Of a DNA stretch of 64,000 bases, positions 15,509-19,879 are shown piece by piece (the stretch's first letter is position 1; each line of letters starts with the position of its first letter). The position numbers and the translations under genes were made by a program. The notes under the pieces were generated by a model. The model did not search any database and was not told the DNA's origin. It saw only the letters and a list, made by a program, of their open reading frames with translations. This DNA is from Candidatus Krumholzibacteriia bacterium (GTDB lineage: Bacteria > Krumholzibacteriota > Krumholzibacteriia > JAJRXK01), in assembly GCA_041484665.1 (NCBI GenBank), contig JBGPIA010000001.1:320001-384000 (forward strand). The letters run 5' to 3'.

Positions 15509-16081
15509 TCATCGCGTCGCCTTGGCCGGGACCATGAGGGGGATCAGGCTCTCCGTGAGCGCGTCGCGCGTGCGGAGGATCGTGGAGCCCACGTTGATCA
15601 GGTGAGACGGCTCGTCGTCCCAGCGGGATTGGCGGTCGTACAGGAGGTAGGTGTCCCACCAGACTCCCTCTCCAGCGCCGTAGTGGGAGTTCGCCGCGAA
15701 CCAGCTCCCCAGCAGTTTGTCCTTGTCCCAGAAGTGTGCCACGCGCGGATCGCGCATGAGTCTGGCGGACCAGGCTGCGCGCCGGTCCATGAACACCATG
15801 TTGAACCACACGGCGTAGACCTTGAGGTCGGATTCGGGATGCTTCTCGAGGATTTCCTGCTGCACCCACCGGGCGCCTGCGACGCAGGCGGGTCAGGTGG
15901 GGGACACCAGCAGGATGAGGCGCGGCGAACCGGCATCGGCGTTGAAAACCGCCTTGAACTCCTCGAGAGTTCCGACCGCTCGCAGGTCGGTTGAGCCGGG
16001 CGAGCCGCCACCGCACGCGACCGCCAAGCTGCACGAAAGAGCGAGGGCCAGCGCCGCGCGCCGGGAGTCTCTGCAACGCAT
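15509..16081 (-). CDS. Putative selenoprotein: thioredoxin-fold lipoprotein with UxxC motif (UGA at 15893-15895 read as Sec)
   Basis: ORFs 15893..16279 and 15509..15865 are in one frame joined by TGA, giving LILLVSPT-U-PACVAGARWV. ATG 16081 follows GGAGG, lipobox-like LAVAC, SECIS-like hairpin after the UGA. Confidence 0.75.
15856..15888 (-). promoter_or_regulatory. Candidate bacterial SECIS element
   Basis: After the UGA, CCUGC(+5..9) pairs with GCAGG(+33..37). Upper stem GCGCCC/GGGUGC closes a GGU loop at +23..25. Confidence 0.6.
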
Positions 16082-16361
16082 CCTCTGGACACCTCCGCGG
16101 GGGGCGCATCGTCGGACGTCACGGTCGGCTCTCAAAGCGGTGCAATCATGTATCAGCGCGACCGATTCCTCCAGCTCCAAGACCCCCGGCCGGCCTGCAT
16201 CAGGGACTTCGCAACGGATGTCCGGCTCCCTCCAAGCGATCGTCGCTTGTGGGTGGCGCCGTTTCGCCGCTAGAATCACCCTCGGCCAGGCCCCCTCCGC
16301 CCGCCACGCACGCTTTGGTCCTGCAGTTCGTTCGCTTGACCCGGAACTTCACCGCGGTTCC

Positions 16362-19256: not shown

Positions 19257-19879
19257 ATGGGCGCAGGCCTACGAGAATCTCCCAGCTGCGTTCCCGATTC
19301 TGCACTCTGGTCGTGCTGGGTACAGCGCTCCTTCGTGCGCCCCGCCCAGCCAGCGCGGGGCTCGCCGCTGTGCCGCAGGCGCCGGGCCCCGCCCGCGAGA
19401 CAGTCGAGGGGCCGACCTCGCGGTCGGCCCCGCAGCCGGCGGCGGCGCCCTCAGTCTCGGTGGACGCGGTCAAGGAGCTCATCCGCAACGGTCGCTACGC
19501 CGAGGCGGAGGCGGAAGCCAGGGGCCTGCTCGCGGCGATCGAGACCCGTCAGGGGAACGAGTCGCTCGACGCCGCCACTGCCCTGGACCTGCTGTGCGAA
19601 TCCCTCTGGAGAGGGGGCAAGTCCGCCGCGCCGGAGTCGAGTACGCTCGCGCAGCGCGCCATCACGCTTCACGAGCAGCTCCAGGGGCCCGCGCACGCCG
19701 ACCTGGCGCGCAGCCTCAACAACCTGGCCAACATGTACCGCCTGACGGCGCAGTATCCGCGCGCGAAGTCGCTGTTCGAGCGGGCTCTGGCCATCCGGGA
19801 GAAGGCCCTGGGCCCCGAGCACATCCACACAGCCGGCGTCATGAACAACCCGACCCGCGGACCCGGATCGACAGCGTAG
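19257..19879 (+). pseudogene. Truncated secreted TPR (kinesin-light-chain-type) protein
   Basis: LARSLNNLANMY..A..LFERALAIREKALGPEH repeat breaks off mid-repeat. ATG 19257 is one base out of frame with the signal-like sequence. Confidence 0.6.

Follow-up and report, generated by a model that had tools for sequence, protein, structure and literature searches.

A 64,000-nucleotide stretch of the genome of a Candidatus Krumholzibacteriia bacterium, here called the window, holds a gene that almost certainly encodes a selenoprotein, since 100 of 102 related loci retain the in-frame TGA that takes the place of the first cysteine in a thioredoxin-type active site. The predicted product is exported, and as its relatives adjoin or are fused to mercury-resistance genes, the capture and hand-off of toxic metals outside the membrane is a likely function. 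Some 119 prokaryotic selenoprotein families are listed, and this one adds to them; in its clade it is almost invariably encoded with Sec, and gene callers split its members in two. It offers a direct genetic handle on whether bacteria use the mercury affinity of selenium on purpose, casts merR-merT clusters that lack merA in a different light, and indicates that the true N-terminal domain of some MerA genes is hidden behind a TGA codon.

A single reading frame interrupted by TGA

The following features were assigned to the gene:

15509..16081, minus strand: predicted selenoprotein gene, 190 aa, export leader and thioredoxin-fold domain with U63-P-A-C66 (sequence, comparison and model)
16092..16096, minus strand: GGAGG ribosome-binding site, 10 nt ahead of the ATG (sequence)
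16013..16081, minus strand: predicted signal peptide, residues 1-22, to lipobox-like LAVA-C23 (pattern match)
15893..15895, minus strand: in-frame TGA, codon 63, predicted selenocysteine
15884..15886, minus strand: Cys66, second residue of UxxC (alignment)
15862..15876, minus strand: SECIS hairpin, GGU loop at +23 to +25 from the UGA on a 6-bp stem GCGCCC/GGGUGC
15653..15658, minus strand: Trp142-Asp143, strand start, at the cis-Pro-Thr/Ser place of thioredoxin-like proteins (low-confidence profile register)

Read from 16081 down to 15509, the gene comprises 190 codons and a TGA stop, with a single internal TGA in the context RLILLVSPT-U-PAC. In the standard ORF list this frame appears as two, an upstream ORF that stops at 15893 and one of 118 aa (15865-15509), and the protein database entry for the gene consists of the 118-aa tail alone (P0004). 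An earlier interpretation of this DNA made from its letters alone (the sequence-only reading) had rightly joined the two ORFs into one TGA-broken frame; it gave no strand, and only the minus strand yields the frame, the plus strand giving nonsense. The GGAGG site that it named is present at 16096-16092, 10 nt 5' of the ATG, and GC3 is coding-like in both halves (0.81 and 0.88). A scan for promoters and terminators found none. Both flanking genes, a 2-oxoacid dehydrogenase E1 gene and one for a spermidine-synthase-like TPR membrane protein, lie on the opposite strand; elsewhere in the window, a short TPR ORF (19313-19879) resembles an N-terminal fragment of a longer TPR protein.

A sequencing error, which had been named as one way in which the proposal might fail, was looked for at the TGA, and other runs carry the same codon. 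Contigs of runs X2 (possibly the source sample), X6 and X7 span it well, and a 151-nt contig of run X9 covers it but stops 12 nt from the codon; none of the four shows a different letter where it covers the gene.

Homologs and conservation of the TGA codon

Related loci were retrieved by a peptide pattern 25 residues 3' of the TGA, which yielded 22 genome loci, plus 203 metagenome loci of which the best 80 were taken, a redundant set that reduces to 67 at 90% identity. The U63 column holds TGA in 100 of these 102 loci and Cys in none, the remaining two being frameshift-looking. The TGA loci come from at least three phyla, with coding conserved on both flanks, and the family was found in MAGs of Acidobacteriota, Chloroflexota and Vulcanimicrobiota. 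Among 51 full-length database proteins picked by length (alignment A5), the column is Cys in 49, Trp in one (P0164) and Gly in one (P0071). Homologs with TGA or Cys in this column had been anticipated, and the TGA indeed takes the first position of the CxxC motif, aligning with the Cys of homologs between conserved flanks. The Cys66 column is Cys in 103 of 103 aligned rows; two other loci have TGA there, of which L087 is a clean UxxU variant (L087:944-955, two in-frame TGA codons and one hairpin) and L037 carries TGA at both motif positions and a later TAG. Loci L037, L039 and L040 look damaged.

A profile search found 2701 clusters (50% identity) at E<=0.001, many of which may be split halves. 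Nine of ten homologs checked are unnamed or hypothetical in the database, the tenth, with an HMA domain, being called a copper chaperone; the Atlas clusters nearest a Cys homolog are likewise unnamed hypothetical proteins. Since a family member, with TGA or Cys, occurs in 9 of 41 relative genomes and the window copy shares 58% identity with its closest aligned relative, a metagenome locus, the sequences hint at a patchy distribution and possible transfer of the gene. A quick tree search, whose mer labels were set by hand and from which no counts were drawn, places the window copy near the mer-linked loci L043, L064 and L046, with no well-supported clade holding it.

Two further observations concern family architecture. 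Two Terriglobia genomes each contain two near-identical copies of the gene (L027-L030), with a transposase beside L027 and L030. L007, L016, L017, P0027, P0031 and many of P0016-P0165 carry, ahead of the thioredoxin domain, a further domain of some 110 aa that has no name; this large group includes both Sec and Cys forms, and two members tested gave no Pfam match for it.

Selenocysteine machinery and genetic code

The Sec machinery on which a selenoprotein would depend is complete in the source genome (G000; completeness 93.65%), with selA, selB, selC and selD all found: selA, selB and selD score above the NCBIfam cut-offs, SelB reads as 627 aa, and a tRNA with anticodon TCA (tRNA-Sec) is present. 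The selD gene itself and a peroxiredoxin-like gene have an in-frame TGA with a similar hairpin. As TGA is otherwise the commonest stop of the genome (183 of 297 long ORFs on contig C1), the genome does not use a code in which TGA means Trp. All 41 class-level relatives carry selA, which therefore does not discriminate between carriers and non-carriers of the family at that level; so do 25 of the 27 genomes holding a homolog, the other two being G048, with a tRNA-Sec match of 64 bits, and G041, with none above cut-off. Two redoxin-like matches with in-frame TGA were also noted in G000, one with a good hairpin (TPG-U; C15:47426-47821, minus strand) and one without (U-x-x-C; C2:780512-780892, plus strand).

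A conserved SECIS hairpin

The bacterial SECIS consensus consists of a loop of 3-9 nt with G in its two initial positions, a stem of 4-16 bp, a spacing of 16-37 nt and an energy of at most -7.5 kcal/mol (PMC13188914, Fig. 2 legend). According to our own script the window hairpin fits it, with a GGU loop, a 6-bp stem, a spacing of 22 nt and -8.5 kcal/mol. When the free RNA including the UGA is folded, the SECIS stem has a pair probability of 0.0, outcompeted by a rival hairpin at +4 to +18; with the first 6-12 nt after the UGA removed, as the ribosome would cover them, it rises to 0.98-1.0. Folded alone, the window RNA gives z-scores of only -0.5 to -1.1, which are not significant. Among 1544 random TGAs of the genome, 222 have some such hairpin and 22 have one at this spacing; the hairpin of a single sequence is weak evidence.

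It is conservation across relatives that makes the predicted hairpin solid. Among 75 distinct sequences, a stem at this spacing reaches 4 bp or more in 73 and 5 bp or more in 70; for the latter, 1000 synonymous recodings gave 14.6 +/- 3.3 (maximum 26). Within the stem, 72 of the 75 spell their Ala/Thr codon GCC or ACC and none GCG or ACG, though these two are commonest elsewhere in the same genes. In the alignment 96.2% of cells pair, with 11 double changes; pairing exceeds all 500 shuffles and the percentage paired also all slid controls, relatedness inflating counts of this kind. Among the five Cys homologs whose DNA was compared, three lack such a hairpin and two have a weak one. The upper stem GCGCCC/GGGUGC with its GGU loop, as drawn in the sequence-only reading, is thus present and conserved, if not formed in the free RNA. 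The lower stem CCUGC/GCAGG proposed with it was rejected: it is not conserved, 53% of its cells pairing, which is below every one of 500 shuffles; the same pairing slid by 3 columns gives 79.7%.

These data bear on whether the TGA might instead be a true stop (of a pseudogene or between two genes), an error or a Trp codon. Such a reading could draw on the Trp of P0164 and the Gly of P0071, both known from protein records, on the damaged look of L037, L039 and L040, and on the carrier MAG G041 without selA or tRNA-Sec above cut-off. It is nevertheless highly improbable in view of the TGA retained in 100 of 102 loci of at least three phyla between conserved coding flanks, the excess of hairpins over synonymous recodings (70 of 75 against 14.6 +/- 3.3), the prevalence of TGA among the stops of the genome (183 of 297) and the identical letters in other runs.

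Predicted export and thioredoxin fold

The lipobox pattern, as in PROSITE, combines a basic n-region, a hydrophobic h-region and the lipobox Cys. The window protein shows this order by pattern match, its basic n-region and hydrophobic stretch leading to LAVA-C23, with Ala rather than the usual Leu at residue -3. Leaders of 63 non-redundant members comprise 15 with the lipobox pattern, 47 other hydrophobic ones, some of them twin-arginine-like, and one below threshold. Of the membrane-anchored extracytoplasmic location suggested before, the predicted export is therefore well supported, by a leader in 62 of 63 members; the lipid anchor, a pattern match found in 15 of 63, is likely for the window protein.

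An AlphaFold model built from 103 sequences is confident (pLDDT 93.1, pTM 0.89) and agrees with the thioredoxin topology proposed from the letters. Its best structural matches are DsbE/ResA/TlpA-like proteins (Z 11-12.6), and DipZ and glutathione-peroxidase-like structures also match; the top Foldseek matches are glutathione peroxidases (E about 1e-4, 12-16% identity), and a profile matches the redoxin-like proteins of the genome with a probability of 93.8%. A TlpA/ResA-like thioredoxin fold is thus predicted, with U63 and C66 at the start of the first core helix.

The cis-proline usual in this fold is lacking. Residues 113-157 of the window protein contain no Pro, and in a profile alignment of low-confidence register W142-D143 stands where the TlpA-like proteins of the genome have P-S/T. 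The W142 column is Trp in 99 of 103 rows and the D143 column Asp in 101 of 103; 19 of 103 members have a Pro two places earlier. Further conserved residues are W92, D111-x-R113, W118-D119 and W154. In the excerpted text of PMC2757866, cis-proline is described as highly conserved in dithiol oxidoreductases and, with reference to Su et al. 2007, as a residue that may keep metals off CxxC.

Relation to catalogued families

No Pfam model reaches its cut-off with the window protein (best PF13462, 11.7 bits against 23.2) or with 14 members (best PF00578, E 0.0011), and no NCBIfam model does so with the window protein or the 103 aligned members. The selenoprotein models of NCBIfam 20.0 (NF041057, NF040730, NF047660 and others) do not match, including the many that cite Haft and Tolstoy 2025 or Haft and Gwadz 2023. 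Sequence searches of the PDB returned nothing with the single protein and weak thioredoxin/glutaredoxin matches with the profile. Among the 119 families in Table 1 of PMC13188914 no entry fits, a separation that rests on HMM libraries and not on the Table 1 sequences, and none fits in the excerpts of PMC12013277, PMC13326102 and PMC13745706. Literature linking selenoproteins to mer terms amounted to general reviews at most. The family matches no catalogued one in these sources; it may be listed in Haft and Tolstoy 2025, Haft and Gwadz 2023 or Deng et al. 2026.

UxxC thioredoxin-fold selenoproteins, including a selenolipoprotein (NF041057), are already known, as are selenoproteins in metal transport. 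For comparison, the UxxC selenoproteins in Table 1 of PMC13188914 include Redoxin (PF08534), Prx-like (PF00578), thiol:disulfide interchange (PF13098) and deiodinase-like (PF00837) proteins. The present family shares with UxxC thioredoxin-fold selenoproteins Sec as the first residue of CxxC after a hydrophobic strand, a SECIS right after the UGA, Cys homologs and a TlpA/AhpC-like fold; it differs from those four in that no model comes near its cut-off, cis-Pro is replaced, extra W/D residues are conserved and relatives are tied to mer genes. The Rcas_1661 family (NF041057, thioredoxin-like (seleno)lipoprotein, listed as DsbG-like) is also an exported thioredoxin-fold UxxC selenolipoprotein, yet its model matched one of 14 members, at E 0.082, and none of 103 at E<=0.01. 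With TlpA/ResA/DsbE the window protein has in common the thioredoxin fold and a CxxC-type site at the helix start after the first core strand, but it lacks the cis-proline before the third core strand.

Two metal-related groups complete the comparison. Selenium also occurs in heavy-metal clusters in MerT-family (PF02411, NF045683), UxxU metal-binding (NF041115), SaoT (NF040730), DF-family (NF049942) and Csac_0668 (NF045877) selenoproteins, and DF and Csac_0668-like genes adjoin relatives here; however, their Sec lies in a transporter, HMA or small Trx domain, and none of these models matches. Like MerP and NmerA, the HMA domains of Tn21/Tn501, relatives of the window protein either follow merT, are fused to it, or head MerA as its N-terminal part, and offer two chalcogen ligands in x-x spacing. 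Unlike them, they have a thioredoxin fold without the HMA fold or GMxCxxC motif, Se replaces S, MerA was mostly not found in carrier genomes, and the domain can coexist with HMA.

Association with mercury-resistance genes

Neighbours were counted at the 52 non-redundant TGA loci whose upstream sequence spans 600 nt or more, using neighbour profiles built from the same loci. MerT-like genes were found at 30 loci, in each case just upstream or fused, MerR-like genes at 25, zf-CopZ at 13, DF-family at 8 and CsoR-like at 3, with at least one of these five metal genes at 35 of the 52. At the 29 loci with at least 2500 nt upstream, MerT was found at 16, MerR at 13 and at least one of the five at 18. 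By eye, most MerT neighbours keep both Cys pairs, and MerR neighbours have three Cys spaced as in Tn501 MerR (excerpted text of PMC5027573). A separate HMA gene is near only 5 loci, so that most such operons show no MerP in the DNA examined. Sensors of Zn, Cd and Pb are likewise found among three-Cys MerR-family proteins, which counts against a mercury-specific reading; the regulator at L060 scores the same 101.6 bits, short of the cut-off in either case, with the MerR and ZntR models. The Cys columns of MerT, MerR, DF and zf-CopZ neighbours (one query each) showed no Sec.

Fusions extend this association. In L033 and L108 (525 and 532 bits against the TIGR02053 cut-off of 454) the domain, without its leader, forms the N-terminus of MerA (L033:428-2452 and L108:1872-3875, with L110 and L112 near copies of L108), and gene calling would place the start of MerA beyond the TGA. 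Fusions to MerT (L075, P0103), to HMA (P0016, P0025, P0163; with DF-domain fusions counted as well, also P0155) and to MerT plus HMA (L010 and L014, the paralog in G000) were also found; a separate merA-like gene, with a Cys pair at its end, is present in L065 and L070. The single MerT in the 5.4 Mb of G000 is that fused to the paralog. The paralog operon (C12:155-2378, minus strand; L123) runs from a three-Cys merR through a DF-family thioredoxin-like gene to a MerT/HMA/unknown domain/UxxC fusion, whose frame continues across a TGA that has a hairpin of its own. A reverse-transcriptase-like ORF (YADD motif; L123:6317-7369, minus strand), probably a group II intron piece, lies 4 kb away.

None of the five metal genes stands beside the window copy, as is also the case at 17 of the 52 loci, and 44 ORFs sampled around 18 loci without metal genes showed no common theme. 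The generic redox role assumed in the sequence-only reading was proposed from a view in which neither the merR/merT/merA link nor the missing cis-proline was visible. A general envelope thiol-oxidoreductase or peroxidase, whose mer link would be a secondary recruitment that does not describe the orphan window copy, may fit orphan copies: the window neighbours are the E1 dehydrogenase and spermidine-synthase-like TPR genes on the other strand, glutathione peroxidases head the Foldseek matches, the profile reaches a large wider family of 2701 clusters (E<=0.001), and L007, L016 and L017 are fused to another N-terminal domain and have no metal gene. For the family this is unlikely, as MerT, HMA, DF and MerA fusions recur in both tree clades and in Sec and Cys forms, and the nearest quick-tree relatives of the window copy, albeit outside any well-supported clade, include the mer-linked L043, L064 and L046.

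Proposed mechanism

We favour, at about even confidence, an exported selenolate/thiolate module for the capture and hand-off of soft metals, because this accounts for both HMA-like positions and the lost proline. The TGA, the conserved SECIS and the full Sec machinery almost certainly bring about insertion of selenocysteine, and the resulting U-x-x-C site of the thioredoxin-fold protein likely binds a toxic soft metal ion, mercury first and possibly others. Loss of cis-proline would be loss of a residue thought to keep metals off CxxC. Relatives of the gene come after merT and under a MerR-type regulator with three cysteines, or form the C-terminus of MerT(-HMA) or the N-terminus of MerA, the positions that MerP and NmerA take in classical mer operons. 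The selenolate would outcompete protein thiols for the metal, and the protein would pass it to the cysteine pairs of MerT or MerA, or simply hold it. As Hg-Se bonds are very stable, hand-off to thiols would be uphill. Since L010 and L014 join the domain and HMA in one chain, the domain is not a simple MerP replacement. The window copy would be a stand-alone scavenger detached from its operon, the C12 paralog keeping the merR-DF-merT-HMA context.

The same arrangement may be read as the endpoint of a redox relay in a metal-stress operon, which is possible although we doubt it. Electrons would run from a DF-family/zf-CopZ protein or the MerA flavin domain through MerT-like Cys pairs to the exported UxxC protein, and envelope thiols (HMA, MerT) would be kept reduced or the metal reduced outside the cell. 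Extracytoplasmic disulfide reductases have this fold, an exported U/C pair would depend on a reductant, and the order merR - DF or zf-CopZ - merT - selenoprotein gene resembles Trx-DsbD-DsbE; the MerA fusion can be read as Grx-reductase-like, and the rarity of MerA and the coexistence with HMA (L010, L014) are explained better than by capture and hand-off. On the other hand, the window protein lacks the cis-proline highly conserved in dithiol oxidoreductases (excerpted text of PMC2757866), and MerT is known, in the excerpted text of PMC3737084, as an ion transporter and not as an electron conduit.

Returning to the favoured capture and hand-off, classical import-and-reduce detoxification cannot be the rule, because MerA scores above cut-off in only 1 of 22 carrier genomes (incomplete MAGs) and in G000 no MerA does. 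It is tempting to speculate, more tentatively, that this widespread, uncatalogued family is the core of a MerA-independent, selenium-based detoxification of mercury or other soft metals in soil and sediment bacteria, in which a thioredoxin fold, having lost its cis-proline, turned into a selenolate trap that replaces MerP/NmerA; trap and MerT-like partner would sequester or reduce the metal at the cell envelope. Separately, G053 has two MerA-like matches below cut-off with one and two in-frame TGA codons (C134:5907-7262 and C82:195-1580, respectively), possibly selenoprotein reductases or broken genes.
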